Shown here: piece after piece, positions 25,567 to 49,987 of the stretch
How the letters are laid out: every line of letters starts with the position of its first letter
How positions within the stretch are numbered: the first letter of the stretch is position 1
NCBI GenBank assembly: GCA_964469525.1
Contig: CAYXYU010000003.1
Span: forward strand, 33,185 to 97,184
DNA: 64,000 bases
Source: an uncultured Rickettsiales bacterium
Lineage (GTDB): Bacteria > Pseudomonadota > Alphaproteobacteria > Rickettsiales > SXRF01
Reading direction: 5' to 3'
Notes under the pieces: model-generated
Told to the model about the DNA's origin: nothing
The model's input: only the letters and a program-made list of their open reading frames with translations
The model's database searches: none
Position numbers and translations under genes: made by a program

Positions 25567-25662
25567 CGTCATCACCCGAATCGGCGTAGCCGATTTCTAG
25601 GGTGATCCAGTTTGAATATAAACCTGATGGCTTAGAATTCCTGCGGAATTCAGGCCGTGACA
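25567..25662. repeat. Inverted doublet of CGTC-tagged REP-like units (family I, doublet A)
   Basis: CGTC-ATCACCC-GAATCGGC-gta-GCCGATTTC-TA-GGGTGAT-CCAG, then a reverse degenerate copy at 25623-25662. Confidence 0.88.
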
Positions 25663-25673
25663 AAGGAGAGGAT

Positions 25674-25976
25674 ATGCGCTGGGAATGTATCGCAGTCTAT
25701 ATTATGACGAACATGCGAAATGGCACGCTCTATATCGGCGTCACCTCGAATCTCATCCGCAGAATCTTCGAACATAAAAGCAATGCCGTCGATGGCTTCA
25801 CCAAGAAGTACGGTCTGCACACGCTGGTGTATTACGAGCTCTTCGACAGCATGGAAGCCGCTATCCATCGGGAAAAGCGCCTCAAAAAATATACCCGGGA
25901 AGCCAAGCTGGCGCTTATTGAGAACATGAATCCCGAATGGAAGGATCTGTATGACTCCATAGCCGTCATGGCCTGA
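25674..25976 (+). CDS. Small stand-alone GIY-YIG nuclease (100 aa)
   Basis: AVYIMTN...TLYIGVTSNLIRRIFEH...YYE...AIHREKRLK...NPEWKDL; RBS aaaggagagg before the ATG at 25674. Confidence 0.9.
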   Translation: MRWECIAVYIMTNMRNGTLYIGVTSNLIRRIFEHKSNAVDGFTKKYGLHTLVYYELFDSMEAAIHREKRLKKYTREAKLALIENMNPEWKDLYDSIAVMA

Positions 25977-25978
25977 CT

Positions 25979-26076
25979 CGTCATCCCCTGAATTTGCGCA
26001 GCAAATTCTAAGGGGATCCAGTAGCAAAGAAAGGCTGGATGGCCTTAGAATCGCTTTCGCGATTCAGGCCATGACG
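25979..26076. repeat. Inverted doublet of CGTC-tagged REP-like units (family I, doublet B)
   Basis: CGTC-ATCCCCT-GAATTTGC-gca-GCAAATTC-TA-AGGGGAT-CCAG, a 13-nt spacer, then CTGG-ATGGCCT-TA-GAATCGC-tttc-GCGATTC-AGGCCAT-GACG. Confidence 0.92.
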
Positions 26077-26165
26077 AAAGAGAGTAAAAACACAAAATTT
26101 ATTTCGAATATTTATGGTTTAGTTTCAATATAATAACCACTAAATCCTAAGGAGGTTCCGCCGTA

Positions 26166-26181
26166 TTAACCGGTCATTAAC
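26166..26181 (+). promoter_or_regulatory. CtrA-binding box upstream of flagellin
   Basis: Exact TTAA-ccggtca-TTAAC (TTAA-N7-TTAAC). Confidence 0.7.
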
Positions 26182-26278
26182 CATTCTCCCCGATAATGGG
26201 AAGTAATGTGGAATAAATCCCACAGTGTGAAAGCATGTAGCTTTCGGTTCATAACAAGTCCAAGTAGGAGACGATCCC

Positions 26279-27958
26279 ATGCCTAATTCAATCAACACCA
26301 ACATTGCCGCGTATTTCGCGCAGGCAAACATCGCGACTGCTGCCAACCAGGCCGCATACGCGGTGGCCCGCCTCTCGAGCGGTAACCGCATCGTACTGGC
26401 GTCCGACGACGTCGCGGCGCTCGCCATCGGTACGTCACTCGCCACGCAGGTGAGCGCGCTGCGTACCGCGCAGACCAACGCCGCGCAGGGTAACAGCCTG
26501 CTGCAGGTGGCGGACGGCGCGCTGGCGCAGATCCAGAACATTCTGCAACGCCAGAAAGCGATCGCGCTGCAAGCCGGTTCAGGCTCGCTGACCGATACCG
26601 ACCGCGGGTTCTTGAACCAGGAATTCCAGGCGCTGTCGACGCAGATCGATAACCTGACCCGCAGCACGACCTTCAACGGTGTGAACCTGATCGACGGCTC
26701 GCTGTCGGGCGCCAACCCGCTGGTGTCGGAAGACGCGGCCCATACTGCGACGGTTACCGGCTTTACGGCGCAGACTGGTATCACCGCCGTGGCATTCACC
26801 GATAACGCTACCGGCACGCTCGGCGATACCACCTTTTATGGCGATTTGTCGGAAGGCGTGTTCGAAGTGCAGTTCGACGGCGTCACTGGCTACAATATTA
26901 CCTTCAACCTCAACGGTTCGACCTATGTCGGTGTGGAAGCCGACATCAGCGGTACCGGCACCAGCATCGTGCTGACCAACGGCGAAGGTACGCTTACCTT
27001 CACCGTATCGGCTGACCTGACCGGTACTTATGCCGCTTCGGCTGCCGGCGCTACCTTGTTTGAAACGGCGCTGACCAACAGCTTTGCCGCGGCGACCGCT
27101 TTCTCGAACCGTGCGCTACAGGATGCTAACATTACTGTCGGTGCAACGGAAGTGGAAGGCACCGCCATTGAAGCGGCAGATACCAACGGCACCTTACTTG
27201 AAGGTATGGATGGTTCTGACATTACACTCCGTTCCGAATTCTGGAACGGCATCAACGCTCCGACCATTGCCAACTTCCAGGCCATTGGTGATAGCGGCAT
27301 CGGTATCAAGTTCTCGGTCGAAGTTGACGGCCGGACTTACATCACCGGCGCGCTGACCGATGCCACCGATTTATCCGCTGATGATATTCTCGGTGACGGT
27401 GCAGGTGTGATGACTTTCTATCTCGATGGCGATTCGACGGCGAATCCCAACGAGTTCATTACGGTTGCTCTGGCTAACTCGGTTCAGATCATTGACGTGG
27501 ATACGGATGAGAATGTCGCGGCCTTCCTGACCGACCTGAACCAGGTGTTCGGGCGCACGGGCGGCGGTCTGACCTTCCAGCTCGGCACCACGTCGCAGGA
27601 TGCAGTCGGCGTTTCCATTGCCAGCGCTTCCACCTCGGCGATTTTCGTGGGCGCGTCGCTCAGCGTCGATACCCAGAACAATGCCGAAACCGCCAGTACG
27701 GCGGTGACGGTGGCGATTGCGACCGTCACGGCCCTGCGCTCCGGCGTGGGTGCGCTGGAATCGCAGTTCGCCTTCGCTTCCGCCGCGCTGCAGACCAGCG
27801 TCCAGAACCAGGACGCCGCCCGCAGCCAGCTGCTGGAAACGGACATCGCGACCGAGTCCACCAACTTCGCTACGCAGCAGGTCAAGCTGCAGGCCGGTAT
27901 CTCTGTGTTGGCCCAGGCCAACCAGCAGCTCCAGGCCCTGCTGAAGCTGATCGGCTAA
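26279..27958 (+). CDS. fliC: Flagellin (559 aa)
   Basis: SINTNIAA...RLSSGNRI...DDVAAL and DIATESTNFATQQVKLQAGISVLAQAN. Confidence 0.97.
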   Translation: MPNSINTNIAAYFAQANIATAANQAAYAVARLSSGNRIVLASDDVAALAIGTSLATQVSALRTAQTNAAQGNSLLQVADGALAQIQNILQRQKAIALQAGSGSLTDTDRGFLNQEFQALSTQIDNLTRSTTFNGVNLIDGSLSGANPLVSEDAAHTATVTGFTAQTGITAVAFTDNATGTLGDTTFYGDLSEGVFEVQFDGVTGYNITFNLNGSTYVGVEADISGTGTSIVLTNGEGTLTFTVSADLTGTYAASAAGATLFETALTNSFAAATAFSNRALQDANITVGATEVEGTAIEAADTNGTLLEGMDGSDITLRSEFWNGINAPTIANFQAIGDSGIGIKFSVEVDGRTYITGALTDATDLSADDILGDGAGVMTFYLDGDSTANPNEFITVALANSVQIIDVDTDENVAAFLTDLNQVFGRTGGGLTFQLGTTSQDAVGVSIASASTSAIFVGASLSVDTQNNAETASTAVTVAIATVTALRSGVGALESQFAFASAALQTSVQNQDAARSQLLETDIATESTNFATQQVKLQAGISVLAQANQQLQALLKLIG

Positions 27959-27967
27959 GCGAAGGAG

Positions 27968-28022
27968 CTTTACGGAAAGCCCGGGGCGGGGTAGTTTTCC
28001 CGCCCCGGGTGATCCCGTAAAG
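27968..28022 (+). other. Long GC-rich hairpin between fliC and flaG (mRNA stability or termination element)
   Basis: cccggggcggg/cccgccccggg 11-bp stem, extended by ctttacgg/ccgtaaag; abuts the flaG RBS. Confidence 0.65.
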
Positions 28023-28030
28023 GAGGGTTT

Positions 28031-28396
28031 ATGGATGCCATAACCTTACTGCCGCCTGCCGTAAGCGTTCCGGTGCTTCCGCAACCGGCTTCTGCCCCGT
28101 CTATCCCCACCGGCGGTTCCCTGGTCAGCACCGAGTTGAAGCTGCCGGGATCGGGCGAAGCCAGCGTGGATGTGCAGTCGGTGGACCAGAAACGCTACGA
28201 GGCCGTGCGTGTGCGCTCCGAGGCGATCGCCAACGTCTTCATCGTCGGTGACCGGCGCTTCACCATCTTCAAGGATGTCACCGGTCAGTATATCACCCGC
28301 TTCACCAGCCTGCGCGACGGCCGGGTCACCTACATACCGGAGCCGCAACTGCTCAAGATGAGCCAGGGCGGGGAAGCGCTGAATATACGGGTATAA
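28031..28396 (+). CDS. FlaG-like protein
   Basis: Position fliC-x-fliD-fliS; C-terminal FTIFKDVTGQ...YIPEPQLL. Confidence 0.55.
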   Translation: MDAITLLPPAVSVPVLPQPASAPSIPTGGSLVSTELKLPGSGEASVDVQSVDQKRYEAVRVRSEAIANVFIVGDRRFTIFKDVTGQYITRFTSLRDGRVTYIPEPQLLKMSQGGEALNIRV

Positions 28397-28412
28397 CGGC
28401 ACGGTTTTTGCT
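28397..28412 (+). promoter_or_regulatory. Sigma54 promoter of fliD-fliS
   Basis: CGGCACGGTTTTTGCT (GG-N10-GC, near consensus). Confidence 0.7.
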
Positions 28413-28499
28413 TTCTGAATAGCAATGCAAAGGCATGGAATGCCTGACGCAGGGTGAAATGTAACCGCAACAATGCTATAATGGGACAATGAATTAATT

Positions 28500-28595
28500 C
28501 CCTCTCCCATGCAATGGGAGAGGGTTAGGGTGAGGGCACTTCGTCCCTTAAAGTAAGCGCCCTCACCCCGGCCCTCTCCCGCAAGCGGGAGAGGG
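28500..28595. repeat. CCCTCTCCC/GGGAGAGGG compound palindrome in the fliD leader
   Basis: CCCTCTCCCAT-gca-ATGGGAGAGGG ... CCCTCTCCCGC-aa-GCGGGAGAGGG; relatives at 41552 and 62567. Confidence 0.85.
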
Positions 28596-28609
28596 GGAAA
28601 AGAGGAGTC

Positions 28610-30406
28610 ATGGCAACGGTCACGATAGGCAATTTCTTCACCACCAGCGACGGCAGGAATGTGCTCGGCGGGGTGGGTGGCTCGGGCCTGAATACCGAGG
28701 AATTGCTGAATTCGCTGATGGAGATCCGGCGGCTGCCGATCATCCAGGCGGAGGACAAGATCGAGATCAATAACGAGCAGCTCACGGCGCTCTCCACGTT
28801 CCATAGCCTGCTGACCATTTTCCAGAGCGCCGCCGATGCACTGCGCAACCCGCCAGGGGTTGGCAACGCCGGTGACAATGTATTCCAATACACCACCACT
28901 ACCGTCACCGCCAGCGACGGCTCGACTGCCAGCAACTACCTGACGGTCACCAGCACGCCCGGCGCCGCCAAGCAGGCCTATACGGTAGGGCATATCACAT
29001 CGATCGCTACGGCGGCGACGCAGGTGGCGGGCTCCTTCACCATCGCCGATGCGGATTCGATTATCGTCTCGGCGAGCCCCATCGGCGGCACCGCCAACCA
29101 GTTCAATGTCGGCACCATCACTTTCAACGGCGAGGACATCACCTTCGAGGAAGGCGACACGCTGAACGAAGTGGCCGCCAAGTTCAATGCCGTTTCCGAT
29201 GAAACCGGGGTAGCTGCTACGATCATCCAGGTGGCCGACGGCGAATTCCAGCTGTTCTTCTCGGCGACCGAAACCGGCACCGACGCCAATTTTGACCTCA
29301 CTACCGCCACCGACCCGAGCGGCGTGCTGACCGGTGCCAGCGTGGATGCGGCGGTGGCCGGCACCAACGCGGTATTCCAGCTCAACGGCCTCACCATTAC
29401 CCGCCAGAGCAATACGGTGGATGACGTGATCGACGGCCTCACCTTCAACCTGCTGCAGCCATTCGATACCGGGATGACAGCGGCCTCGCTGACGGTGAAT
29501 GTCGTGGCCGACACGACGACGGTGCAAAACTCGATCGTCACCTTCGTGCAGGCTTATAACGCGCTTAAAACCTTTGAAGCCGAGCAGACCGAGCTCAATG
29601 CCGACGGCACCAATGCCGCGACGGCGCTGCTCATCAACAACCAGGCTTTTCTCAATATTATGGCCGACATTAAACTGCGCGTGACTTCGGCGGTGGAAGG
29701 CATTGCCTCCGGCCCGACCAGCCTGTCCGATGTTGGCATTACCTTTACCACCCAGCCGTCCGACGGCGAACTGCCGGCGGTCGAGAATATCCTTACCATC
29801 AACGATGCCGAGCTGACGGCGGCGCTGGCCGGTGATTTCGAAGGCGTCAATGCGCTGTTCGGCTTCACACTTGATTCCGACAATCCGAATATTACGGTTT
29901 TCTCCTCGACCAATGCGCTGGGCGTGTCGGAATTCACCCTCGATCTTGACACTACCCCCGGTTCCGAGCTGTTCGAAGCTACTTACGATTTAGGCGCGGG
30001 CCCGGTCACAGTCGAACTGGAATTCACCTCGCTCGGCTCCGCCGGCTATAGCCTCTCCGGTCCGGCCGGTTCGGCGCTTGAGGGGCTTGTATTGATTTAC
30101 GGCAGCACCACGTCGGCCACCGGTGTCAGCGTCACCGCCACCAACGGCCTGGCCGCCATGTCGTATAATACGGTGGACACGGCCTTGGAGTTGAATACCG
30201 GGACGCTGTCCATCGAGATGGAGGCTTTCGAGGATGAAAATACGCGCCTTGAGGAAGAGATCGTCCGTCTCGAAGAGCAGGTGGCGATGTATCAGGAACA
30301 ATTGCTGATCAGGTTCGCCGCGCTGGAGGCAACGATATCCAGCGTCAACACGCTGCTGGCCAGCCTGGAGGCGCAGCAGAACGCGGCCATCGCGGCGGCG
30401 GGCTGA
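28610..30406 (+). CDS. fliD: Flagellar filament cap protein
   Basis: SGLNTEELL, RQSNTVDDVIDGLTFNL, FVQAYNAL and RFAALEATIS. Confidence 0.93.
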   Translation: MATVTIGNFFTTSDGRNVLGGVGGSGLNTEELLNSLMEIRRLPIIQAEDKIEINNEQLTALSTFHSLLTIFQSAADALRNPPGVGNAGDNVFQYTTTTVTASDGSTASNYLTVTSTPGAAKQAYTVGHITSIATAATQVAGSFTIADADSIIVSASPIGGTANQFNVGTITFNGEDITFEEGDTLNEVAAKFNAVSDETGVAATIIQVADGEFQLFFSATETGTDANFDLTTATDPSGVLTGASVDAAVAGTNAVFQLNGLTITRQSNTVDDVIDGLTFNLLQPFDTGMTAASLTVNVVADTTTVQNSIVTFVQAYNALKTFEAEQTELNADGTNAATALLINNQAFLNIMADIKLRVTSAVEGIASGPTSLSDVGITFTTQPSDGELPAVENILTINDAELTAALAGDFEGVNALFGFTLDSDNPNITVFSSTNALGVSEFTLDLDTTPGSELFEATYDLGAGPVTVELEFTSLGSAGYSLSGPAGSALEGLVLIYGSTTSATGVSVTATNGLAAMSYNTVDTALELNTGTLSIEMEAFEDENTRLEEEIVRLEEQVAMYQEQLLIRFAALEATISSVNTLLASLEAQQNAAIAAAG

Positions 30407-30861
30407 TGAACGCGCAGCACCAGAAATATCAGGCCTATGTCAACGCCACCCAGACGGTGGCGAAAACCAAGCAGGTCGTCATGCTTTATGACGGTGCCAT
30501 CCGCTCCATGCAGCGCGCCCGCGAAGCTATTCTTGAGAAACGCATTGAGGACCGCTACCACGCGCTGACCAACGCGCGCGACATCGTGCTGGGCCTGCAG
30601 GGCTGCCTCGATTTTGAAAACGGCGGCGACATCGCCAGGGTGCTCTACAGCTATTACGCCACCATCGAAGGCGGCATCTATGCCATCCACCGCAACAGCA
30701 CGCCGGAAGCCTGCGACGAGGTGATTGCCGAACTGAAGAAGATGCGCGACGTGTGGCATGAAATCGATCAGAATACGGGGGGCGAAGCGCACCATACGGC
30801 AGCACCGGCAACGAAGCCCGGTGAACCGCCCAAACCGGAGAATATTTCCCTGTCTGCCTAG
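30406..30861 (+). CDS. fliS: Flagellin chaperone FliS
   Basis: VVMLYDGAIRS, LDFENGGDIA and LYSYY. Confidence 0.92.
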   Translation: MNAQHQKYQAYVNATQTVAKTKQVVMLYDGAIRSMQRAREAILEKRIEDRYHALTNARDIVLGLQGCLDFENGGDIARVLYSYYATIEGGIYAIHRNSTPEACDEVIAELKKMRDVWHEIDQNTGGEAHHTAAPATKPGEPPKPENISLSA

Positions 30862-30987
30862 GATTCATTATTCAGCCCGGCAGTTTTTTCCTTTCCTGCA
30901 ATTTCAAAGACCTGCCGTTCCTTACCGGCCTGCCCCATAAGCCAGGCAGTATAAATAATATTTATTAATTCCAGTAATTTGACCGCT

Positions 30988-31003
30988 TGGCACGTCCTTT
31001 GCT
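30988..31003 (+). promoter_or_regulatory. Sigma54 promoter of fliK-flgD-flgE
   Basis: TGGCACGTCCTTTGCT, a canonical -24/-12 match. Confidence 0.8.
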
Positions 31004-31036
31004 GCATATGCATTGGATAACTATGCAAAGGTCGTT

Positions 31037-32842
31037 ATGACGACGGTGACTGTAGCAACACTAGGCCTGCCCGAGGTGGTGAATGTCATTCCCGGCCGGG
31101 GTGTGGAGCTGGATGCGGCGGAAAGCTTTCTGGCGCTGCTGAATGCCGGCGCGCCGAAGCCGGAGAAGGAGCGCGGATCCGAGCCGCCGGCCGCCCCGAT
31201 CGATGTGCCGTTGCCGGAACTCATTCCCCCGCCACGGCGTGAAGCGGGCGGTGTCCATGGCGAACCGGAAACGCGGACGCTGGCGGAGGATATCCTGCCG
31301 CCGGTGGAGCAAGCAGCGCCACCAGCAAAGGAAAATGCGTCTCGCCGTGCCGAATCCAATGAACATGCTCCCGCCAAAGCCTCGCCTCATACGGAGTCCC
31401 CGCCTGATGAACCGGCGGTGAACGGAAGCGATCACTCTGCTGCGACTGCCGATGCCGGTGACGCAACGGACGTGGCGCAGGGCATCCGGCGGCTGCGCGC
31501 CCGCCTGCAGCAGCAGCTTGCCCATCTCAATCAGCTGCTGCAGTCGATCATCCAGGCACTGAGCGGGCAGGCGGTTGCTGATGCAGCATTGCCGGAGGAC
31601 GTCCATGCGGCATTGCAGGCACTGCATGCCGGGCAGGCCATTCCGGAGGGCGCTGAAACCACCGAACTCGCATTGTTGAAAGATATTCAGTCCATTCTGC
31701 AGCAGCTGCAGGCGCTGCAGGCATTCGGCGCGCCAGTGCCGAAAACGCCCACCGACATTCTGATTGCTGTCCCGGCACAAGATTTGATGAAAGCCGATTA
31801 TCAGCTGCCCCCGCAACTGATCGATCCGGCGCAGGCGCAGGCGCTACTGGATGCGCTCGATGCCGGTATCGCAAAATTGTCGCAGCTTCTCGCAAAAAGC
31901 CCGGCTGCGGATAGTTTGGCAACCAATCCGTCCTTTGCGCCGCTCGGTGCTTTGATTAAGCAAGCCATTGCCGATCTGCGGGCGGAACTGCAGCAGTTGC
32001 AGGAAGAAAACCAGGCGCTGATCCTGCGCCTGCAGGAGAGTCTGCAGATAAGGCTTCCGCAAGGCTCTCCGGTGCTGCAGGACTTGCTGGCGCGTCAGGG
32101 CCTCGTGCTGCAGGAGAAAGTTGTCCCGCCAGCCGGATCTCCCCTCGCCGCGGATAAACCGGTCAACCTCCAGCCGGCGGCAATGACGGTTCCTCAGGAT
32201 GCCGCTCCGTCTGGCGTTAACGCTCAGCCGCAGCAGACAGCAGCGGCGAATGCTGTGCCGATGGCCGGCGGTCAGCCTGATGTGGGCGGGCAGACCGGCG
32301 GCAACAGCCAGGGGCAGAACCAGCCCCTGCCGGCGCCGGCAACGCCCGCTTCCGCCGGTGCAGCCCAGAGTGCCGGTAATGCGGGGAGCCTGTCCTTCGC
32401 CCGCGTGATCGACCAGGCAGTCCAGCGCCCGCTGGTCGAGCAGGTCAGCTTCCATATCAAGACCGCCATCGCCGATGGCAGCAGCAAGATCACCATCCGT
32501 CTGGAGCCGGCTGAGCTGGGCAGGCTGGATATCCGGCTGACCATTGGTTCCGACGGCAAGACCGGAGTAATTATCACCGCCGACAACAAGCAGACACTCA
32601 CCCTATTGCAGCAGGAATCGCAGGGGCTGGCGCGCGCGCTGAACGATGCCGGGCTGTCCACCGACAGCGGCAACCTGAGTTTCAACCTGCGCGGCGGCGA
32701 GCAGGAATGGACGGGGGCGGAGGGCGCGCAGGCGTCGCTGACCTACCGGAACCAGCAGCCCGAGGAAGAGGACGATGCGCTGAACGTGCTGACGCGCAGC
32801 TATGTCGTCAACCTCGCCGAGGGGCTGGACATAAAGATATAG
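31037..32842 (+). CDS. fliK: Hook-length control protein FliK
   Basis: Pro/Ala/Gln-rich N-terminus and C-terminal ITIRLEPAELGRLDIRL domain. ATG 31037 preferred because TTG 31013 lies at the predicted transcription start. Confidence 0.88.
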   Translation: MTTVTVATLGLPEVVNVIPGRGVELDAAESFLALLNAGAPKPEKERGSEPPAAPIDVPLPELIPPPRREAGGVHGEPETRTLAEDILPPVEQAAPPAKENASRRAESNEHAPAKASPHTESPPDEPAVNGSDHSAATADAGDATDVAQGIRRLRARLQQQLAHLNQLLQSIIQALSGQAVADAALPEDVHAALQALHAGQAIPEGAETTELALLKDIQSILQQLQALQAFGAPVPKTPTDILIAVPAQDLMKADYQLPPQLIDPAQAQALLDALDAGIAKLSQLLAKSPAADSLATNPSFAPLGALIKQAIADLRAELQQLQEENQALILRLQESLQIRLPQGSPVLQDLLARQGLVLQEKVVPPAGSPLAADKPVNLQPAAMTVPQDAAPSGVNAQPQQTAAANAVPMAGGQPDVGGQTGGNSQGQNQPLPAPATPASAGAAQSAGNAGSLSFARVIDQAVQRPLVEQVSFHIKTAIADGSSKITIRLEPAELGRLDIRLTIGSDGKTGVIITADNKQTLTLLQQESQGLARALNDAGLSTDSGNLSFNLRGGEQEWTGAEGAQASLTYRNQQPEEEDDALNVLTRSYVVNLAEGLDIKI

Positions 32843-32851
32843 GAGGTAGCC

Positions 32852-33535
32852 ATGGCCATTGATGCAGTCGACAGAACCACCAGCGGCACCCGCACCACCG
32901 CCGAGGCGCGGCAGGGGCTGAGCACCAATTACCAGGATTTCCTTAAGCTCCTGACCACGCAGCTCAACAACCAGGATCCGACTTCGCCGATCGATACCAA
33001 CGAAATCACGGCGCAGATCGCCATGCTGAGCCAGGTCGAACAGCAGATCAACACCAACAGTAACCTGGAGCGGCTGGTATCACTGTTCTCGATGAGCCAG
33101 ACCAGCGCCGCCGTTGCCTATATCGGCAAGCAGATCGACGCGGTGGGCAACCAGGGCGAGCTCAGGGGTGGCGTGGCCCAGTTTGTCTACAATCTGCCCG
33201 CCGGCGCCCAGAGCGCCACCGTGACCATCACGGACAATGCGGGGCGGGTGGTGTTCACCGGTCCCGGCACGGCGCTCGCCGGCCGCAACCAGGTGGTGTG
33301 GCAGGGCGTCAACAGCACGACCGGCAATACCGAGCCGGACGGGGTCTACAAATTTACCGTCGCCGCCAAGGACGCAGACGGCAAGGAGATGGAAGCCACC
33401 ACCTATACCACCGGCACGGTGACGGCGGTGGACAGCCAGAACGGCACCACCAGCCTGATGTTGGGCGGCAGCCTGACCGTACCGTTTGGCGACGTATTGA
33501 CTGTCTATAATCCGGGTACGAATCCGGGTGCGTAA
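32852..33535 (+). CDS. flgD: Hook capping protein
   Basis: DFLKLLTTQLNNQDPTSP...AQIAMLSQVEQ. Confidence 0.95.
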   Translation: MAIDAVDRTTSGTRTTAEARQGLSTNYQDFLKLLTTQLNNQDPTSPIDTNEITAQIAMLSQVEQQINTNSNLERLVSLFSMSQTSAAVAYIGKQIDAVGNQGELRGGVAQFVYNLPAGAQSATVTITDNAGRVVFTGPGTALAGRNQVVWQGVNSTTGNTEPDGVYKFTVAAKDADGKEMEATTYTTGTVTAVDSQNGTTSLMLGGSLTVPFGDVLTVYNPGTNPGA

Positions 33536-33562
33536 CGAATTTTTTAAGGAAGGAGCAGTGTT

Positions 33563-36058: not shown

Positions 36059-36064
36059 CGGCTG

Positions 36065-36104
36065 GGAAGCCGCCGCCGGTTAGGTACTCCTGGCGGTGGC
36101 TTCC
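36065..36104 (+). terminator. Hairpin after flgE (no U-tract)
   Basis: ggaagccgccgccgg / ctggcggtggcttcc. Confidence 0.5.
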
Positions 36105-36315
36105 TGCGGTTGGCTGAGAAATCAGGGTGCCATTAACGAATTGTTTCTAATGGTAAATTCTTTTTTTATAGAGGTTGACAAGGCCTCTTAAATTATCTAC
36201 TACAATGAGTGTTCATATATCTAAGGCATGGCCACATATAGTGGTTCTGTCGTTTATGGGTATGTGACGATGGTTAAAATGCAGGGTTAAAATTATTTTT
36301 GCGCAAGGATCCCCG

Positions 36316-36648: not shown

Positions 36649-36663
36649 CCTCACTGCGCGCGT

Positions 36664-38861: not shown

Positions 38862-38881
38862 TCTCCGCAGCAAATGTGGGG

Positions 38882-40198: not shown

Positions 40199-40206
40199 GG
40201 GGGCAT

Positions 40207-41547: not shown

Positions 41548-41551
41548 TATC

Positions 41552-41575
41552 CCCTCTCCCGCAGGCGGGAGAGGG
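41552..41575. repeat. CCCTCTCCC palindrome between convergent astB and SDR genes
   Basis: CCCTCTCCCGC-ag-GCGGGAGAGGG. Confidence 0.8.
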
Positions 41576-41584
41576 AAAACTGGA

Positions 41585-42352: not shown

Positions 42353-42429
42353 GGAAAAGTAACCATTGGTTCCGTATACTGGAAGGGTATACAGACGGAT
42401 AGAAGATAAAGCAATCACAGCAGGCAATC

Positions 42430-42984
42430 ATGAGCAGTAAGAAATCCCTGTGCGTCTTTTGCGGCGCATCCAATAACGTTCCCAAAAAATTCCTCGATAT
42501 CGGCGCCGAATTCGGCGATCTCCTCGCCAAGAACGACATCACGCTGGTTTATGGCGGCGGCGATTGCGGCGTCATGGGCGCCGTGGCCAATTCGGTCATG
42601 GGCGGCGGCGGGCATGTCACCGGCGTGTTCCCGGTCAGCCTGCGCAATATCGAGAACGAGCACCAGTCGCTTAGCGAGATCATTATCGTCGGCACCATGC
42701 ATGAGCGCAAGATGACCATGTTCGAAAAATCGGACGCCTTCATCGTCTTCCCCGGCGGCTTCGGCACCATGGACGAGATGTTCGAGATCCTGACCTGGAA
42801 GATTCTGCTGCTGCACGACAAGCCGGTGGTGATTTTCAACTATCAGGGTTATTGGGATCCGCTGATCGCGCTAATGAAAAATATCATCGAGGTCGGCTTT
42901 GCGCGGCCTGAAGTGGCCACCTATTACCACGTGGTGACCGAGCTCGAGCAGATCCTCGACGTGCTCGAATTCAAAACAGTTTGA
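42430..42984 (+). CDS. LOG-family nucleotide phosphoribohydrolase
   Basis: CVFCGAS, LVYGGG, MHERK and PGGFGTMDE. Confidence 0.92.
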   Translation: MSSKKSLCVFCGASNNVPKKFLDIGAEFGDLLAKNDITLVYGGGDCGVMGAVANSVMGGGGHVTGVFPVSLRNIENEHQSLSEIIIVGTMHERKMTMFEKSDAFIVFPGGFGTMDEMFEILTWKILLLHDKPVVIFNYQGYWDPLIALMKNIIEVGFARPEVATYYHVVTELEQILDVLEFKTV

Positions 42985-43624
42985 CCGCCACCGTAAGCCC
43001 CTCCTGCGTGGGAATCAGCGTTGAGAAATAACGCTGCGGGTCGGCCAGCCGCTCGTTAAATAGCTGCATGGCGTGCCAGGTGGCGGGAGCGACATGCGGC
43101 GGCGGTGCCTCGAGCCCCATGCTGCCGAATAGCAGCGTATTGTCGGCGATGATCATGCCGCCTTTCCGGACATTCGTTTCCGCCCAATCCAGGTAGTCGT
43201 TGTAGCTGAGCTTATCGGCATCGATGAACACCAGGTCGAACGGTCCTTCTGCCGCAAGCTGTGGCAATACGTCATGCGCGTCGCCCGCCAGCTGCGTGAT
43301 CTTCTCTTTCAGCGGCGACTGGTCGAAGAAATGCGCCGCCATCGATATATGCTCGGGTTCCTTGTCGATAGTGTAAATATGCCCGTCCTCCGGCAGTGCC
43401 GCCGCTATCCACAGGGTGGAATAGCCGGCGAGCGTCCCGATCTCGACCAACTTCTTCGCGCCGTGCAGCCCGACCAGCAATTGCAGCAGCTTTCCTTCCT
43501 CCGCCCCGATATGCATATGGATGCCGAGCTTGTGCAGGGTGGCGTCGATGCTTTTCAGCAAGCTGTCTTGCGGCGCGTAGAGCTTGCGGATATAGTCGAG
43601 GGCGAGCGTAACCTGGCGCGTCAT
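42971..43624 (-). CDS. O-methyltransferase (caffeoyl-CoA OMT-like)
   Basis: VEIGTLAGYST, FDLVFIDADK and GGMIIADN. Confidence 0.9.
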   Translation of the reverse strand: MTRQVTLALDYIRKLYAPQDSLLKSIDATLHKLGIHMHIGAEEGKLLQLLVGLHGAKKLVEIGTLAGYSTLWIAAALPEDGHIYTIDKEPEHISMAAHFFDQSPLKEKITQLAGDAHDVLPQLAAEGPFDLVFIDADKLSYNDYLDWAETNVRKGGMIIADNTLLFGSMGLEAPPPHVAPATWHAMQLFNERLADPQRYFSTLIPTQEGLTVAVKLF

Positions 43625-43640
43625 GAGGAAGTGGATAAGG

Positions 43641-43680
43641 GGATGATCGGATGACCAGATTACCAGATGATCGGGTGATG
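43641..43680. repeat. Degenerate 8-mer tandem repeat at the recJ start
   Basis: ggatgatc|ggatgacc|agattacc|agatgatc|gggtgatg. Confidence 0.7.
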
Positions 43681-45468
43681 ATACAACCCGCTATTGATCA
43701 TCCGACCACCCAATCATGGAGTCTCACTTCTCTGACCGGTCGCGAATGGATACAGCGCGCTGCCGAGGAGCGTGACGTCATAGCGCTGATGCAGCGCCAC
43801 GGCCTGCCGGAAATAGTCGCCCGCGTCCTGGCAGCGCGCGGCGTCCCTCTGGACGAAGTAGAAACTTTCCTGACGCCGAGCTTAAAGGCGGCGCTGCCCG
43901 ATCCTTCGCACCTGCAGGATATGGACGCAGCGGCGGAGCGCGTGGCGGCGGCTGTCATGAGTGGCGAGCGAGTCGCCATCTTCGGTGATTATGACGTGGA
44001 CGGCGCCACTTCCTCGGCGCTGCTGATGCGCTATTTCCGGGCGCTGGGCGCCGAGCCCATCGTCTATATCCCCGACCGCGTGAAGGAGGGCTACGGGCCC
44101 AATGCACCGGCACTGCTGGCGCTGAAGGAATGCGGCGCTTCAGTGGTGATTACCGTTGATTGCGGCACGCTCGCCTTCGAGCCGCTGGTCGCCGCGCATC
44201 AGGCGGGGCTCGATGTCATCGTCGTCGACCACCATATCGGCGAGGTGCGTCTGCCCAAGGCGTTGGCGGTAGTCAATCCCAACCGGCTCGATGAAACCTC
44301 GCCGCACCGCCAGCTCGCCGCCGTCGGCGTGACGTTCCTGCTGGTCGTGGCGGTGAACCGGACTTTGCGCAAGACAGGATTTTTTGTAAGTCAGCGTGAA
44401 CCCGACCTTCGCCAGTGGCTCGACCTGGTGGCGCTCGGCACCATCTGCGACGTGGTGCCGCTGACCGGCGTCAACCGGGCGCTGGTGGCGCAGGGCTTGA
44501 AGCTTATCGCCGGGCGGGGCAATACCGGCATGCGAACGGTGCTCGATCTCGCCAGGGTCAGCGAAAAACCCGGCGTCTATCATTGCGGTTTCGTCATCGG
44601 GCCGCGCATCAATGCGGGCGGGCGTGTCGGAAAATCCGATCTGGGCGTGCGGCTGCTGACCACGGACGATGAGGTCGAAGCGCTGGCGCTGGCCAAGGAG
44701 CTGGAGCAGCATAATGCCGAGCGCAAGGCGATCGAATCACAAGTGCTGGAAGAAGCGATGATGCAGGCCGAGGCGGTACCGCCGGAATGCCCGCTGATCC
44801 TGCTGGCGGGCAGGGGCTGGCATCAGGGCGTTATCGGCATCGTGGCCGGCCGCGTTAAGGAACGCTTCCATAAGCCCACCGCTATCGTTGCGCTGGAAAA
44901 CGGTATCGGCAAGGCTTCTGCCCGCTCGGTGCCGGGGGTCGATTTCGGCGCGGCAGTAATCGCGGCGCGCGATGCGGGGCTGCTGATGGCGGGCGGCGGC
45001 CATGCCATGGCGGCGGGATTTACGGTAGAGGAAGATAAAATACCCCCCTTGAAGGAATTTTTATCGCAACGCATGCGGACAGTCATTCCGGAAACAGGTC
45101 CAATACGTCGGGTGATGCTCGATGGCACTTTGAGTATTGCCGGCGCCGTACCGGAGGTTGTGGCACGGCTGGACTGCCTGGGTCCGTTCGGGCAGGGTAA
45201 TCCCGCCATCCGGCTGGCGGTACAGAACGTCATCAACCTGCGGCCCGAGCCGGTGAATGATGCGCATGTCAAAACACTGCTGATCGACCGCCTGAGCAAC
45301 GCGCGACTTTCCGCCATTGCCTTCCGCGTGATGGGAACGAAGCTGGGTGAGGTGCTGCTTTCGACCCGCGGTAAGACGCTGGATGTCGCCGGGCAGTTGC
45401 GCGTGCAAGAATGGAACGGGCGGCAGCAGGTGAACCTGCTGATTGATGATGTCGCCATCGCCGCATAA
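43651..45468 (+). CDS. recJ: ssDNA exonuclease RecJ (start 43651 or 43678)
   Basis: FGDYDVDGATS, TVDCG, VDHH, LGTICDVVPL and GGGHAMAAG. Confidence 0.96.
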   Translation: MTRLPDDRVMIQPAIDHPTTQSWSLTSLTGREWIQRAAEERDVIALMQRHGLPEIVARVLAARGVPLDEVETFLTPSLKAALPDPSHLQDMDAAAERVAAAVMSGERVAIFGDYDVDGATSSALLMRYFRALGAEPIVYIPDRVKEGYGPNAPALLALKECGASVVITVDCGTLAFEPLVAAHQAGLDVIVVDHHIGEVRLPKALAVVNPNRLDETSPHRQLAAVGVTFLLVVAVNRTLRKTGFFVSQREPDLRQWLDLVALGTICDVVPLTGVNRALVAQGLKLIAGRGNTGMRTVLDLARVSEKPGVYHCGFVIGPRINAGGRVGKSDLGVRLLTTDDEVEALALAKELEQHNAERKAIESQVLEEAMMQAEAVPPECPLILLAGRGWHQGVIGIVAGRVKERFHKPTAIVALENGIGKASARSVPGVDFGAAVIAARDAGLLMAGGGHAMAAGFTVEEDKIPPLKEFLSQRMRTVIPETGPIRRVMLDGTLSIAGAVPEVVARLDCLGPFGQGNPAIRLAVQNVINLRPEPVNDAHVKTLLIDRLSNARLSAIAFRVMGTKLGEVLLSTRGKTLDVAGQLRVQEWNGRQQVNLLIDDVAIAA

Positions 45469-45595
45469 GTCGGGTAAGCGGCGCATTGCAGGGTCCGGTA
45501 AATTATTCTATAAGCGGCATGATGATAGTGTTTCCTTATAGTGGCTTATTATGGTCCATGGGTGTTACCGGGCCTCGTAACATGCGGGGGGTAAT

Positions 45596-46450
45596 GTGAC
45601 TCCCCTGGCGCTCGCCCTGCATCGCTTAAAAAAGCCGAGCATTATCCCCGGGTTCGGTGTAACGCTCGCCTTTACCCTGATCTATCTGGCACTGATCGTG
45701 CTCATTCCGCTGTCGGGGTTGTTCATTAAAACGGCGACCTTGAGTTGGGGAGAATTCTGGCAGACGGTGACCAGTGATCGTATCATGCACGCCTACAAGA
45801 TCAGCTTCGGCCTGTCCTTCGCGGCGGCCCTGATTAACTGCTTCTTCGGGCTGATTCTCGCCTGGGTGCTGGCGCGCTACCGCTTTCCCTTCAAGAAGAT
45901 CATCGATGCCATGGTCGATCTGCCCTTTGCACTTCCCACCGCCGTGGCCGGTATCGCCTTAACCGCGCTCTATGCGCCGCGCGGCTGGATCGGGCAGTAT
46001 CTCGTACCGCTTGGTATTCAGGTTGCTTTCACGCCGCTCGGCATCCTGATCGCGCTGGTGTTCGTCGGGCTGCCGTTCGTGGTGCGCACGGTCGAGCCGA
46101 TTCTGCAGGATGCTGACCGCGAGGTCGAGGAGGCGGCGATGAGCCTGGGCGCGACGCGCTGGCAGACTTTCTGGCAGGTGATCCTGCCGAGCGTCATTCC
46201 GGCCTTGCTTACCGGCTTTGCCATGGCGTTTGCGCGCGCGCTCGGTGAATACGGCTCGGTTATCTTCATCGCCGGAAACATTCCCCGAGTGTCGGAGATC
46301 GTGCCGCTGGTCATCGTCATCAAGCTCGAGCAGTACGACTATGCCGGCGCCACCGCCATCGCTTCGGTGATGCTGGTCATCTCCTTCATTCTGCTGTTCA
46401 TCATCAACTGGCTCCAGAAATGGACCGGCAGCCATTCGGTGCGCGCATGA
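45596..46450 (+). CDS. cysT: Sulfate ABC permease CysT
   Basis: VDLPFALPTAVAG, EEAAMSLGA and ARALGEYGSVIFIAGN. Confidence 0.95.
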   Translation: MTPLALALHRLKKPSIIPGFGVTLAFTLIYLALIVLIPLSGLFIKTATLSWGEFWQTVTSDRIMHAYKISFGLSFAAALINCFFGLILAWVLARYRFPFKKIIDAMVDLPFALPTAVAGIALTALYAPRGWIGQYLVPLGIQVAFTPLGILIALVFVGLPFVVRTVEPILQDADREVEEAAMSLGATRWQTFWQVILPSVIPALLTGFAMAFARALGEYGSVIFIAGNIPRVSEIVPLVIVIKLEQYDYAGATAIASVMLVISFILLFIINWLQKWTGSHSVRA

Positions 46451-47301
46451 GCGTGTTTGCGCGTCCGTCTCCGATCAGCGAGGCCTGGTGGATCAAGCTC
46501 CTGCTGTTGCTGACCGGTTTGAGCTTCATGGGGATACTGGTGGCGTTGCCGTTGGCGGCGATCTTCGCCGAGGCGTTTCGCCAGGGCTGGGTAGCTTACC
46601 GCGACGCGTTGGCCGATCCCTTAGCGCAATCGGCCATTCGTCTAACGCTGCTGGTGGCTGCGATCGCCGTGCCGTGCAATGTCATCTTCGGTATCGCCGC
46701 TTCCTGGGCCATTGCCAAGTTCGAATTCATCGGCAAGCGGCTGCTCATTACCTTCATCGACCTGCCGTTTTCCGTATCGCCGGTGATCGCCGGCCTGATT
46801 TATGTGCTGCTGTTCGGGGCGGAGAGCATGCTCGGAGAATTTTTCCTGAAGCATGACATCCAGATCCTCTTCGCCGTGCCGGGGCTGGTCATTGCCACCG
46901 TCTTCGTCACTTTCCCTTTCGTGGCGCGCGAGCTGATCCCGCTGATGGAAGAACAGGGCACGGAAGAAGAAGAGGCCGCGATCATGCTGGGCGCGAATGG
47001 CTGGCGCACCTTCTTCTCGGTGACGCTGCCCAACATCAAGTGGGGCCTGCTCTACGGCGTCCTGCTGTGCAATGCCCGTGCCATGGGCGAGTTCGGCGCC
47101 GTGTCGGTGGTCTCCGGCCATATCAAGGGCTTGACCAACACCATTCCGCTGCATGTCGAAATCCTCTATAATGAGTATAATTTCGTCGCTGCCTTCGCCG
47201 TGGCTTCGATACTGACCATTCTGGCGCTGGTGACGCTCTTGCTTAAGACGCTGATTGAATTTAAATTCGCCGGCGAAATAAAGGCGCAGAGAAAAGGATG
47301 A
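46447..47301 (+). CDS. cysW: Sulfate ABC permease CysW
   Basis: IDLPFSVSPVIAG and NARAMGEFGAVSVVSG; ATGA overlap with cysT. Confidence 0.95.
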   Translation: MSVFARPSPISEAWWIKLLLLLTGLSFMGILVALPLAAIFAEAFRQGWVAYRDALADPLAQSAIRLTLLVAAIAVPCNVIFGIAASWAIAKFEFIGKRLLITFIDLPFSVSPVIAGLIYVLLFGAESMLGEFFLKHDIQILFAVPGLVIATVFVTFPFVARELIPLMEEQGTEEEEAAIMLGANGWRTFFSVTLPNIKWGLLYGVLLCNARAMGEFGAVSVVSGHIKGLTNTIPLHVEILYNEYNFVAAFAVASILTILALVTLLLKTLIEFKFAGEIKAQRKG

Positions 47302-47654
47302 CCATGCCGGCTGCCTACATACCGTTCTTTACGATTGGACTGCTGCTGCTGTCCAACATCTTCATGACGTTTGCCTGGTACGGGCATTTGAAATACCTCT
47401 CGGTGGCGCTGCCGCTGGTCGTGCTGGCCAGCTGGGGCATCGCCTTTTTCGAATATTGCTTCCAGGTACCCGCCAACCGTTACGGCTACGGGTATTTCTC
47501 GGGCGTCGAGCTGAAGGTGATCCAGGAAATAATCACGCTGCTGGTGTTTGTTGTGTTCTCGACGCTGTATCTTGGCGAGTCCGTCAAATGGAACCATTAC
47601 GTAGGTTTCCTGCTGATTTGCCTCGCGGTCTATGTCATTTTCAGGAAATGGTAG
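47298..47654 (+). CDS. DMT-family small membrane protein (DUF486-like)
   Basis: SNIFMTFAWYGHLK, FEYCFQVPANRYG and ELKVIQEIITL. Confidence 0.85.
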   Translation: MTMPAAYIPFFTIGLLLLSNIFMTFAWYGHLKYLSVALPLVVLASWGIAFFEYCFQVPANRYGYGYFSGVELKVIQEIITLLVFVVFSTLYLGESVKWNHYVGFLLICLAVYVIFRKW

Positions 47655-47663
47655 CAAGGGCTG

Positions 47664-48890
47664 ATGGGCATCGAGGTTAAAAACATCCGCAAGAATTTCG
47701 GCGACTTCGCGGCGCTGGACGACGTCAACCTGAAGGTGGATGACGGCGAGCTGGTGGCGCTGCTCGGGCCCAGCGGCTCCGGCAAGACGACGCTCTTACG
47801 CATCATTGCCGGGCTGGAATATGCCGATGCCGGGCAGGTGCTGATCGACGGCTACGAAGCGAACGACCTCAAGGTGAAGGAGCGGAAAGTCGGCTTCGTC
47901 TTCCAGCATTACGCGCTGTTCAAGCACATGACGGTGTTTGACAACGTGGCATTCGGCCTGCGTGTAAGGCCCCAGACTATCCGGCCATCGAACGATGAGA
48001 TCGAGCAGCGCGTGATGGATCTCCTGAAGCTGGTGCATCTCGACCGCTTCTATGACCGCTACCCGTCGCAGCTCTCGGGCGGGCAGCGGCAGCGCGTGGC
48101 GCTGGCGCGTTCGCTGGCGGTGGAGCCGAAGCTGCTGCTGCTTGACGAGCCGTTTGGCGCTCTCGACGCCAAGGTGCGCAAGGAGTTGCGCCGCTGGCTT
48201 CGGCGCCTGCATGATGACATTCACATCACCAGCATCTTCGTTACGCATGACCAGGAGGAGGCGATGGAAGTTTCCGACCGCGTGGTGGTGATGAACGCGG
48301 GCAAGATCGAGCAGGTCGGGACGCCCGAGGAAGTGTATCACCACCCGGTCAATGGCTTCATCTACGACTTCCTCGGCAACTACAATGAGTTCGCCGGCTG
48401 GAAGGACGAGCACGGCGACATCCATCTGGCGGAAGACGATCTGTGGTCGCAGGCCTCGCAGACCACCGCGCCGCAGCCGCAGCAGGCGCGGCCGCACTGG
48501 CTGGCGCGCTACCCGGAACTGACCCAGGCGCTGCGCAAGGTGGTGCCCGGCCTGCCGCTGCCGCTGCTTGGCCCGCAGGCGGCGCGCGGCACATCGAAGA
48601 TGACACGCAGCCAGATGCGCACGCTGCTCGCTGAGCGCGGCATCCCGGTGCGCGTGTTCGCCCGCCCGCATGAGATGTTCGTCACCAAGGAACCCGAGGA
48701 AGGGCAGGAGTACCTGCCGGTCGAGGTGATCCATGTCAACCCGGCGGGGTCGCTGGCCAAGATCGAGATGCAGCGCAAGAACGGCGTCGTGCTGCAGGCG
48801 GAGATTCCCAAGACCATCATCGACCAGCTGGCGATTAAAAAGGGCGAGAGAATATTCGTGCGGCCGAAGAACATCCGGGTGTTTGAATGA
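47664..48890 (+). CDS. cysA: Sulfate ABC ATPase CysA with a Pro/Gln/Arg-rich insert
   Basis: [26 protein letters not shown] and a C-terminal TOBE-like domain. Confidence 0.94.
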
Positions 48891-48893
48891 ACC

Positions 48894-48921
48894 GTCAGGT
48901 GTCGGGTGTCATGCCTCAGGT
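48894..48921. repeat. Degenerate 7-mer tandem repeat
   Basis: gtcaggt|gtcgggt|gtcatgc|ctcaggt. Confidence 0.55.
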
Positions 48922-48931
48922 AAGGGATGGT

Positions 48932-49030
48932 CGTCATCACCCGAATCGCGTCAGCGATTCTAGGGTGATCCAGTTTTTATATAGACTGGATTCCCCTAGA
49001 ATTTTGCTGTGCAAAATTCGGGGAATGACG
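48932..49030. repeat. Family I CGTC REP-like doublet C
   Basis: CGTC-ATCACCC-GAATCGC-gtca-GCGATTC-TA-GGGTGAT-CCAG, a 12-nt spacer, then CTGG-ATTCCCC-TA-GAATTTTGC-tgt-GCAAAATTC-GGGGAAT-GACG. Confidence 0.92.
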
Positions 49031-49065
49031 GATTATCACTTACCACTCGCCACGGGGAGTATCGT

Positions 49066-49626
49066 ATGAGCTGGCAGAAGAATCTCCCCAACTACCTGAC
49101 CTATTTCCGCATCGGCGTCATTCCCGCGCTGATTGTCGTTGTGTTTTTCTTCGAGGGAAGGTGGAGCGACTACGCGGCGGCGGCGCTGTTCCTGCTGGCT
49201 TCCGTCACCGACTGGCTCGATGGCTATATTGCCCGCCTGCTCAAGGCGCAGTCAAACCTGGGCCGGTTTCTCGACCCGATCGCCGACAAGCTGCTGGTGG
49301 CTACGGCGCTGCTGCTGCTGGTCTATAACGGCCGCGCCGACCTGCTGCCCGCCATCGCCATCGTTTGCCGTGAAATCCTGGTGTCTGGCCTACGCGAGTT
49401 CCTGGCTGAGCTGCGCGTCAGCATGCCGGTCTCCAAACTCGCCAAGGTCAAGACGGCGGCACAGATGGTGGCGATCCTGTTCCTGCTGCTCGGACCTGCA
49501 GGATTCTACGGCATACCGACGCAGCCCATCGGCAACTGGCTGCTGTGGGTGGCGGCGCTGTTGACGCTGATTACCGGCTACGCCTACCTCAAGACCGGCC
49601 TCAAGCACATGACCGAATCGGCGTAG
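49066..49626 (+). CDS. pgsA: CDP-diacylglycerol--glycerol-3-phosphate phosphatidyltransferase
   Basis: LPNYLT, TDWLDGYIAR, GRFLDPIADK and REILVSGLRE. Confidence 0.95.
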   Translation: MSWQKNLPNYLTYFRIGVIPALIVVVFFFEGRWSDYAAAALFLLASVTDWLDGYIARLLKAQSNLGRFLDPIADKLLVATALLLLVYNGRADLLPAIAIVCREILVSGLREFLAELRVSMPVSKLAKVKTAAQMVAILFLLLGPAGFYGIPTQPIGNWLLWVAALLTLITGYAYLKTGLKHMTESA

Positions 49627-49723
49627 GCTTTCCCGCGTTTTTCTACGTTTCCTATCGGTTTCCGAGCGTTTTTAACACGTTTCGGTAGTGTTTGTATGCG
49701 TTTTACATCGTTTAAACACGCTT
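49627..49723. repeat. Helically phased (C)GTTT tract, 10 units, about 10.4-bp period
   Basis: The G preceding each T-run lies at 49627, 637, 647, 658, 668, 679, 690, 700, 710 and 720. Confidence 0.8.
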
Positions 49724-49882
49724 GTAAGACACGGGAATAGAGGCAATCCAGAACCTTACCCTTATTCACGCGGCAAAAGACGTGACATTCTGTGACATGC
49801 CTTCAATACTTTCCTCCACCAGATTCCCTGCACCACCTCATTTTAAAGCCAGCGTGAATGGCCGGGAAGGGGGGATTTAGCC

Positions 49883-49987
49883 CGTCATCGCCCGAACTGC
49901 CAAAGGCAATTCTAGGACGATCCAACTTCAACGGATGGAGATGGATTCCCCTAGAATTTTTGCTCGCGCAAAAATTCGGGGATGACG
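49883..49987. repeat. Family I CGTC REP-like doublet D
   Basis: CGTC-ATCGCCC-GAACTGCC-aaa-GGCAATTC-TA-GGACGAT-CCAA ... TGG-ATTCCCC-TA-GAATTTTTGC-tcgc-GCAAAAATTC-GGGGAT-GACG. Confidence 0.88.

Follow-up and report, generated by a model that had tools for sequence, protein, structure and literature searches.

We analysed a stretch of 64,000 nt from an uncultured Rickettsiales bacterium (contig CAYXYU010000003.1, positions 33,185 to 97,184; hereafter the window), in which two pairs of inverted hairpin repeats flank a small gene resembling that of the Neisseria nuclease SsnA and two further pairs lie downstream. The original prediction, made from the letters of this stretch, had described eight repeat units in four inverted doublets, and all eight lie where it had placed them. 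By direct reading of the sequence, five are intact and three decayed. We call them long-form units. Each is built from an unpaired CGTC tag, a 7-bp outer helix of the form AT-NN-CC-Y, an inner helix of 7-10 bp starting with GAAT and a loop of 3-5 nt, followed on the 3' side by a 2-nt TA bulge and an unpaired CCAG tail, with a total length of 40-47 nt. The scores listed here are those of R1, a covariance model made from 46 units of 43 nt, 44 of them from other genomes and two (25979-26021 and 49883-49925) from the window.

25567-25610, forward strand: long-form unit 1, left half of doublet 1; CGTC / ATCACCC / GAATCGGC-gta-GCCGATTTC / TA / GGGTGAT / CCAG
25624-25663, reverse strand: long-form unit 2, decayed, right half of doublet 1; tag TGTC, shortened outer arm, tail CAG
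25674-25976, forward strand: ssnA-like gene for a single-domain GIY-YIG protein of 100 aa; AGGAG ribosome-binding site upstream
25979-26021, forward strand: long-form unit 3, left half of doublet 2; ATCCCCT / GAATTTGC; 67.9 bits
26035-26076, reverse strand: long-form unit 4, right half of doublet 2; ATGGCCT / GAATCGC; 55.4 bits
48932-48973, forward strand: long-form unit 5, left half of doublet 3; ATCACCC / GAATCGC; 55.0 bits
48986-49030, reverse strand: long-form unit 6, right half of doublet 3; ATTCCCC / GAATTTTGC; 56.9 bits
49883-49925, forward strand: long-form unit 7, decayed, left half of doublet 4; two stem mismatches, tail CCAA; 55.3 bits
49941-49987, reverse strand: long-form unit 8, decayed, right half of doublet 4; 1-nt deletion in the 5' outer arm, tail CCAT; 41.9 bits

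Every stem pair that had been listed is an exact inverted repeat in the window, and the doublet spacers, given as about 12-16 nt, measure 13, 13, 12 and 15 nt. For the strict layout CGTCAT-N5-GAA..TTCTA-N5-ATCCAG, the window has five matches and 100 dinucleotide-preserving shuffles have none; looser regular expressions added the three decayed units and no further match of the long type. The CGTC tag is present in seven of the eight units. With R1, seven units score 42-68 bits (E 5e-10 to 9e-18), unit 1 reaching 58.6 bits, while unit 2, matched as 25627-25662, is the lowest of the eight (20.2 bits, E 0.0015). Folded as single-stranded DNA (ssDNA), the intact units are predicted to adopt the structure drawn above, with energies between -12 and -14 kcal/mol and z-scores between -5.3 and -6.8 (unit 1: -12.1 kcal/mol, z -5.6). 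The predicted DNA folds of the decayed units 2 and 7 are weak (-6.5 and -6.7 kcal/mol).

All units of the window are intergenic. Doublet 1 starts 7 nt past a FliB_C-like gene and ends 10 nt ahead of the start codon of the ssnA-like gene; doublet 2 starts 2 nt past the stop codon of this gene and is followed by a flagellin gene. An ABC-ATPase gene and pgsA enclose doublet 3; doublet 4 is located between the convergent genes pgsA and a WXXGXW-repeat gene.

Conserved structure and the folded strand

Scanned with the strict pattern, 185,579 species genomes yielded at least 107 stretches (L001-L107). Among the matches listed, nearly all sources are Micavibrio, genomes named 'Rickettsiales bacterium' or unclassified alphaproteobacterial metagenome-assembled genomes (MAGs). 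Matches in Cyclobacteriaceae and Saprospiraceae were set aside as chance, as they do not score with R1. A lack of further genomic copies and of significant covariation had been named beforehand as what would refute the family; in 658 kb of Micavibrio-like loci, R1 found 240 matches, of which about 215 are full-length long units. The expectation that exact-repeat finders would miss the family was also borne out, as the finder used in the Micavibrio genome paper (50 bp, 97% identity) gave almost no repeats, and that paper describes the genome as almost free of repeats and mobile elements. A search of the whole window against Rfam at gathering thresholds returned tRNA only, and permissive thresholds over 48900-50000 gave chance-level matches only. 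A phage origin was considered and dropped after a viral contig collection gave no match to the long-form pattern.

Two unusual copies may be recorded here. At the closest metagenome relative of the window ssnA locus, the upstream long unit (L108:1256-1345) is 90 nt long, about twice the normal length, and still scores 43 bits, the extra length probably being an insertion in the loop. A MAG labelled Pseudobdellovibrionaceae (L090, JBAYVC010000001.1, 304001-312000) carries a long-form doublet at 5155-5253, an ssnA homologue at 5271-5537 and short units of the kind described below. This could be due to mis-binning, to mislabelling or to transfer between two predatory lineages.

The original prediction held that the stems change in sequence and stay paired, and the larger alignment supports this strongly. 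A loose expression collected 208 units from the pattern-scan loci and the window (776 kb), and all seven outer-stem pairs are formed in 192 of the 205 units whose outer arms are of equal length. Among 131 distinct sequences, standard pairs fill 98.4% of the cells compared with 80.4% in shuffles, 398 cells are doubly changed compared with 129, and compensatory double changes occur in 9 of the 15 pairs. When the partner was slid by 1-3 columns as a control, pairing fell to 23-57%. Sequence varies at outer positions 3, 4 and 7 and in the inner helix past GAAT. Invariant are the outer pairs A-T, T-A, C-G and C-G and the start of the inner helix (G-C, A-T, A-T, T-A). About half of the stem (A-T, T-A, C-G, C-G, G-A-A-T) keeps its sequence.

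The terminal tags and the TA bulge had likewise been predicted to be fixed. Counted in 202 units, the tag reads CGTC in 184, TGTC in 13 and otherwise in 5, and the tail CCAG in 137, CCAT in 38, CCAC in 8 and CCAA in 7. The first stem pair is A-T in 202/202 and the second T-A in 200/202 units. The G, T and C 5' of the stem and the C 3' of it are 99-100% conserved, which makes the tags nearly invariant across the family; outside the unit, conservation is limited to a pyrimidine 5' of CGTC and a weak A 3' of CCAG. The initial patterns imposed GAA, TTC and TA, and we therefore consider the bulge on the basis of a re-scan whose sole requirements were GTCAT, an arm of 5 nt with its complement, and ATC. 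Units outside the strict pattern then read GAA..TTC-TA (76), GAA..TTA-TA (6), GAG..CTC-TA (4) and GGA..TCC-TA (2). The TA bulge is truly conserved, because 88 of about 90 recognisable units of the family that escaped pre-selection by the search pattern have it. The re-scan also revealed that the GAA/TTC pair itself covaries occasionally.

The non-standard pairs indicate which strand folds. At outer position 7 we counted 88 C-G, 85 T-A, 28 T-G and a single C-A pair, and at position 5 there are five T-G and one C-A. T-G is a wobble pair on the CGTC...CCAG strand only and corresponds to an A-C mismatch on the opposite strand. The large excess of T-G over C-A therefore argues for selection on the CGTC...CCAG strand folded alone and not on the duplex. 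E. coli BIMEs bind host DNA-binding proteins, and the long-form units, being near-palindromic and intergenic, might similarly be duplex palindromic sites or cruciforms for a host protein such as gyrase, IHF or a regulator and have no connection with the nuclease encoded nearby. At such sites, however, T-G and C-A would be alike instead of standing at 28 to 1, the asymmetric tags and the one-sided bulge would give a polarity for which a symmetric duplex has no use, and the association with a nuclease gene, described below, would not be expected to recur across genomes as it does. We regard a duplex site as very improbable.

The folded strand is most likely DNA rather than RNA. Were RNA the main active form, hairpins transcribed at the ends of genes would stop transcription or shield the 3' ends of mRNAs, a role that has been proposed for classical REPs (repetitive extragenic palindromes). 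The intergenic position of all four doublets, three of them just downstream of a gene, and the wobble (G-U in RNA) tolerated on one strand would agree with it; moreover, many REPs have been argued to be transcribed (Di Nocera 2013, PMC3733652). Yet in terminator scans round the four doublets no unit is followed by a T-run: doublets 3 and 4 gave no match, and the lone match, at background level, overlaps the spacer of doublet 2. Any transcript of a doublet would contain one copy in the wrong strand, and nevertheless the strand-specific tags and bulge are retained in both. A stabilising hairpin would have no need of unpaired tags conserved at nearly 100%, no Rfam family matches, and SsnA does not bind RNA (PMC11893778). 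An RNA function as the main one thus appears improbable to us, while a secondary RNA effect could accompany the DNA role as a side effect.

Doublets, the SsnA-like gene and a possible gene cassette

Close pairs of units are organised in a uniform manner. In the pattern-scan loci and the window, 74 of 76 such pairs have their tags outward, with the CCAG tails turned towards each other across 0-31 nt, and two have them inward. In none of the 74 doublets do both partners carry the same bases at outer positions 3-4, where random pairing would give 16.6 ± 3.2, and the first four variable inner bases are common to both partners in 3 of 74 (10.3 expected). The commonest combination at the outer variable bases is CG with TC. 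The differing yet paired stems thus partly reflect a requirement for doublets to be heterodimeric. Since the stems of the partners differ, each unit would fold alone and not with its partner; predicted folds of whole doublets contain two separate unit hairpins, the outer tags and the inner tails pairing with each other. One long REPIN-like hairpin per doublet was accordingly rejected as the main form. The heterodimer rule would avert a long perfect palindrome. Avoidance of long palindromes was also raised for other families in the survey of Di Nocera 2013, which found 'no obvious explanation' for heterodimers (PMC3733652).

Near-identical doublets, spacer included, occur at several unrelated loci of one MAG, nested there in a larger palindromic element described below, and past dispersal of doublets is clear. 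Inverted doublets, single-strand hairpins and dispersal recall REPIN/BIME elements, and the units could be regarded as REPINs moved by a REP-associated tyrosine transposase (RAYT) of the IS200/IS605 family. The tag, however, is CGTC and not GTAG. Among the clusters formed by 2,573 open reading frames (ORFs) from 108 sources (L001-L107 and the window, a limited sample and not whole genomes) none adjacent to the repeats resembles a Y1 or other transposase, and no RAYT is flanked by CGTC repeats in any species according to Di Nocera 2013 (PMC3733652). This makes RAYT-driven movement extremely improbable.

In the MAGs JAGOQV, JAEUKO and CAYZAR, a long-form doublet is nested in a larger palindromic element with the outer inverted repeats AGACCTGTTGCAAAAGTC / GGACTTTTGCAACAGGTCT. 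The nested element is near-identical at many unrelated loci (L079:3612-3808, L096:5826-6022, L100:779-975, L089:6622-6818 and others); the element with the outer arms AGACCTGTTGCAAAAGTC is a composite MITE-like repeat.

When the same ORFs were clustered, the GIY-YIG cluster was the sole one both non-housekeeping and consistently adjacent to repeats. The 100-aa protein of the window matches Pfam PF01541 over residues 7-76 (E 2.8e-14) and has no other domain; NCBIfam gave nothing above cut-off for it, and a PDB sequence search returned weak UPF0213 matches only (E 5e-4) and no Ssn structure. The Neisseria protein SsnA is a 94-aa single-domain GIY-YIG protein (cd10448) that binds the sequence NTS (CGTCATTCCCGCGMAVGCGGGAATCYRG), the Neisseria member of the CGTC-REP kind, at nanomolar affinity and cuts a few nt upstream of it (Chenal et al. 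2025, PMC11893778). Mutation of its residues Y6, Y17 or E64 abolished cleavage (PMC11893778). Y9, Y20 and E67 are invariant in 10 homologues of the window protein, and their spacings of 11 and 47 residues, matched by position, are those of the SsnA residues.

The cluster has 10 members in 10 genomes, eight of which lie at most 41 nt from a long unit, a count that is biased because the pattern-scan loci were selected for the repeat. For a ninth member (L102), a doublet of the short form lies 20 nt downstream. In L093 and L103, doublets flank the ssnA homologue on both sides, as in the window. The reverse test used 80 metagenome loci picked by protein similarity alone, with 56-66% identity to the window protein. 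Tagged hairpins lie within 400 nt on both sides of the gene in 53 of these loci and on one side in 18, the usual layout being a forward unit, the gene and a reverse unit, and in 24 loci a unit has at most one mismatch from the Neisseria NTS consensus. We consider the 100-aa protein, by analogy with its characterised homologues, a candidate cognate single-strand nuclease of the repeats.

The original prediction had further supposed a protein-bound hairpin recognised by its structure together with the tags and the bulge. The first part gains from the candidate hairpin-binding protein encoded next to the repeats, as judged from the published biochemistry of its homologues (PMC11893778). Purely structural recognition is unlikely, because about half of the stem keeps its sequence and, in Neisseria, altering the palindrome while keeping the hairpin abolished SsnA activity (PMC11893778). 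It has also been shown that SsnA acts on forward-strand ssDNA only, the reverse strand, double-stranded DNA and RNA being inert, that the three nt before the NTS palindrome matter for cleavage and that the C after it matters for binding (PMC11893778).

The ssnA-like gene and its two doublets stand between the FliB_C-like gene and the flagellin gene, which encodes 559 aa (window 24384-27958). In Neisseria, NTS clusters have been reported near surface-protein genes. The position of the window ssnA locus beside flagellin and FliB_C-like genes may be a coincidence.

Short units occur in the window as well, and short and long forms coexist in these genomes. The long form follows the lineage, for among the 80 protein-selected loci only L108, that of the closest homologue, has long units and the others have short ones. 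Two canonical short units, both of which surfaced when R1 was run without filters, enclose a gene of low G+C content near the end of the window.

62983-63010, forward strand: short 28-nt unit TGTCATTCCCGCGAAGGCGGGAATCCAG; same tags, 8-bp stem, 4-nt loop; at most one mismatch from the Neisseria NTS consensus
63017-63850, reverse strand: FRG-domain gene; Pfam PF08867, E 2.7e-19; G+C 0.385 versus 0.586 for the window
63860-63887, reverse strand: short 28-nt unit CGTCATTCCCGCGCAGGCGGGAATCCAG; exact published NTS consensus; partner of 62983-63010, with 849 bp between them

The predicted DNA fold of the first short unit has -8.9 kcal/mol. With their tags outward, the two units resemble a doublet with an 849-bp spacer, and we note the low-GC FRG gene as cassette cargo between them. 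The four closest FRG homologue loci that were fetched are low-GC genes in hosts of 50-57% GC. NTS-type units border three of the four, on both sides in L193, downstream only in L195, and downstream with a decayed unit upstream in L197; no NTS-type units were found at the borders of L194 and of three more distant FRG homologues. The NTS-bounded homologues sit at different chromosomal loci. A further stretch at 31013-31042 on the reverse strand (CGTCATAACGACCTTTGCATAGTTATCCAA) has CGTC and CCAA tags and a weak 5-bp stem at an ORF edge (R1 16 bits, E 0.025); either the decay of a short unit or chance could account for it.

Proposed role of the repeats and comparison with known systems

Overall, we think it likely that the units are a long, bipartite, lineage-specific subfamily of the CGTC-tagged REPs, to which NTS and the Ssn-related motifs (SRM) belong, and that they have an SsnA-type partner. 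By analogy with the Neisseria and Wolbachia enzymes, the SsnA-like protein of the window would bind the forward-strand hairpin as ssDNA only, read the tags and the base of the stem, and nick the DNA a few nt 5' of the hairpin. The inner helix would stand in for the loop of NTS and be free to vary as long as it pairs, save for GAAT/ATTC and the TA bulge. Targets of the nuclease would be single strands that carry the repeats and arise from DNA uptake, replication or repair, and cutting them would modulate recombination; the nuclease might instead, or also, spread the repeats. In Neisseria, the SsnA/NTS pair lowers transformation by NTS-bearing DNA (PMC11893778). Tags-outward pairs, whether doublets, repeat-ssnA-repeat or repeat-cargo-repeat, may behave as non-autonomous mobile modules.

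Several observations weigh against parts of this reading, besides the selection bias in the adjacency count mentioned above. A hairpin of RNA would account for the excess of T-G over C-A no less than one of DNA. None of the eight long units of the window matches the published SRM pattern (HGTCWYN(0-2)YYVSBRHN(0-5)WNVSBRGN(0-2)RNCYNB, with a loop of 0-5 nt), whereas both short units do. The reverse test, starting from the protein, yielded mostly short forms. That the window enzyme acts on the long form, and not just on co-occurring short NTS-type units, we infer by analogy. Flank-to-flank BLAST with 181 elements did not reveal empty sites: it gave seven element-to-target matches (about five orthologous site pairs), all filled in both genomes, and it is from dispersal alone that we infer mobility. 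An orthologous doublet (L011:2337-2451 and L076:2857-2971) is 100% identical over 115 nt, including its 30-nt spacer, while the 200-nt flanks are 83% and 86.5% identical. This speaks for stable inheritance at the site over turnover, and the identity could reflect constraint or gene conversion acting on the repeat.

A bolder proposal can be formulated for how these elements spread. Tags-outward CGTC/NTS pairs would be the ends of a mobile module whose cargo is nothing, ssnA or an unrelated gene such as FRG; Ssn would mobilise CGTC REPs, the long form would mark a distinct, co-evolved Ssn specificity, and the heterodimer rule would be the price of chromosomal stability. Taken as a whole we hold this to be rather unlikely and put it forward as speculation. 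The avoidance of homodimers and the NTS-bounded FRG cassette at differing loci are nevertheless handles on how CGTC repeats spread. Moreover, Ssn enzymes are under development as site-specific ssDNA cutters, and a natural enzyme-site pair with a second helix and a bulge in the site would indicate what can be replaced in the hairpin and may offer a new specificity.

Folded single strands also serve as recombination sites in integrons, where pairing maintains the variable stem of attC and the active strand is marked by bases left unpaired on one side. The long-form units are alike in principle only, as folded single strands with a stem kept by pairing and one-sided unpaired bases; the conserved sequences of the window are unrelated to attC, and the units stand in inverted pairs. 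No integrase or cassette array was noticed, neither having been searched for. REPIN/BIME elements with their RAYT share the inverted pairs of single-strand hairpins, the dispersed intergenic location and a single-copy nuclease gene flanked by its own repeats. They differ in having a GTAG tag and an HUH/Y1 transposase, in place of CGTC and a GIY-YIG protein without known strand-transfer activity.

Closer relatives are the CGTC-tagged REPs, a super-family (CGTC-1 to -4) defined by Di Nocera, De Gregorio and Rocco in 2013 (PMC3733652). Its members have a CGTC (or TGTC/CCTC) tag, a stem of 8-9 bp starting with A-T/T-A, a loop of 4-5 nt and a CCA tail; they are mostly HH dimers with the tags outside, often heterodimers, intergenic, and found chiefly in Alphaproteobacteria, with Micavibrio aeruginosavorus listed as a CGTC-1 host (PMC3733652). 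The long units share the tag, the A-T/T-A stem base, the CCA tail and the HH dimers, and the short units at 62983 and 63860 have the exact CGTC-1 shape. In contrast to the short units, the long ones do not conform to a single stem of 8-9 bp with a 4-5 nt loop: at the position of the loop they have a second helix of 7-10 bp starting with GAAT, plus the TA bulge. The authors of the survey themselves remarked that bulged forms may have escaped it, and described CGTC repeats as sequences that 'apparently lack a dedicated transposase' (PMC3733652). This kind of repeat has thus been known since 2013 and its protein partner since 2025. New here are the bipartite architecture with its bulge, missed by current patterns, the strict heterodimer rule and the NTS-bounded FRG cassette.

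From NTS and the SRM, the latter of which flank ssnA genes across bacteria (PMC11893778), the long units differ in their hosts, which are, judging by the genomes that share the family, a Micavibrio-like predator lineage and not Neisseria or a symbiont, and in that the ssnA-like gene of the window is flanked by whole doublets instead of single units. The SRM pattern finds 29 sites in the Micavibrio-like loci compared with about 215 long units, and censuses that use it to tie repeat load to Ssn undercount this lineage. The tags CGTCAT...ATCCAG are identical, the outer stem of the long units, AT(T/C/G)(C/G/A)CC, resembles that of dRS3 (ATTCCC/GGGAAT), and the polarity of the unit is the same, with GTC conserved 5' and C 3' of the palindrome. 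Both systems share the repeat-ssnA-repeat architecture and a small single-domain GIY-YIG gene with the same catalytic spacing. The units are hence correctly filed with the CGTC REPs and Ssn-related motifs, and not as a new class.

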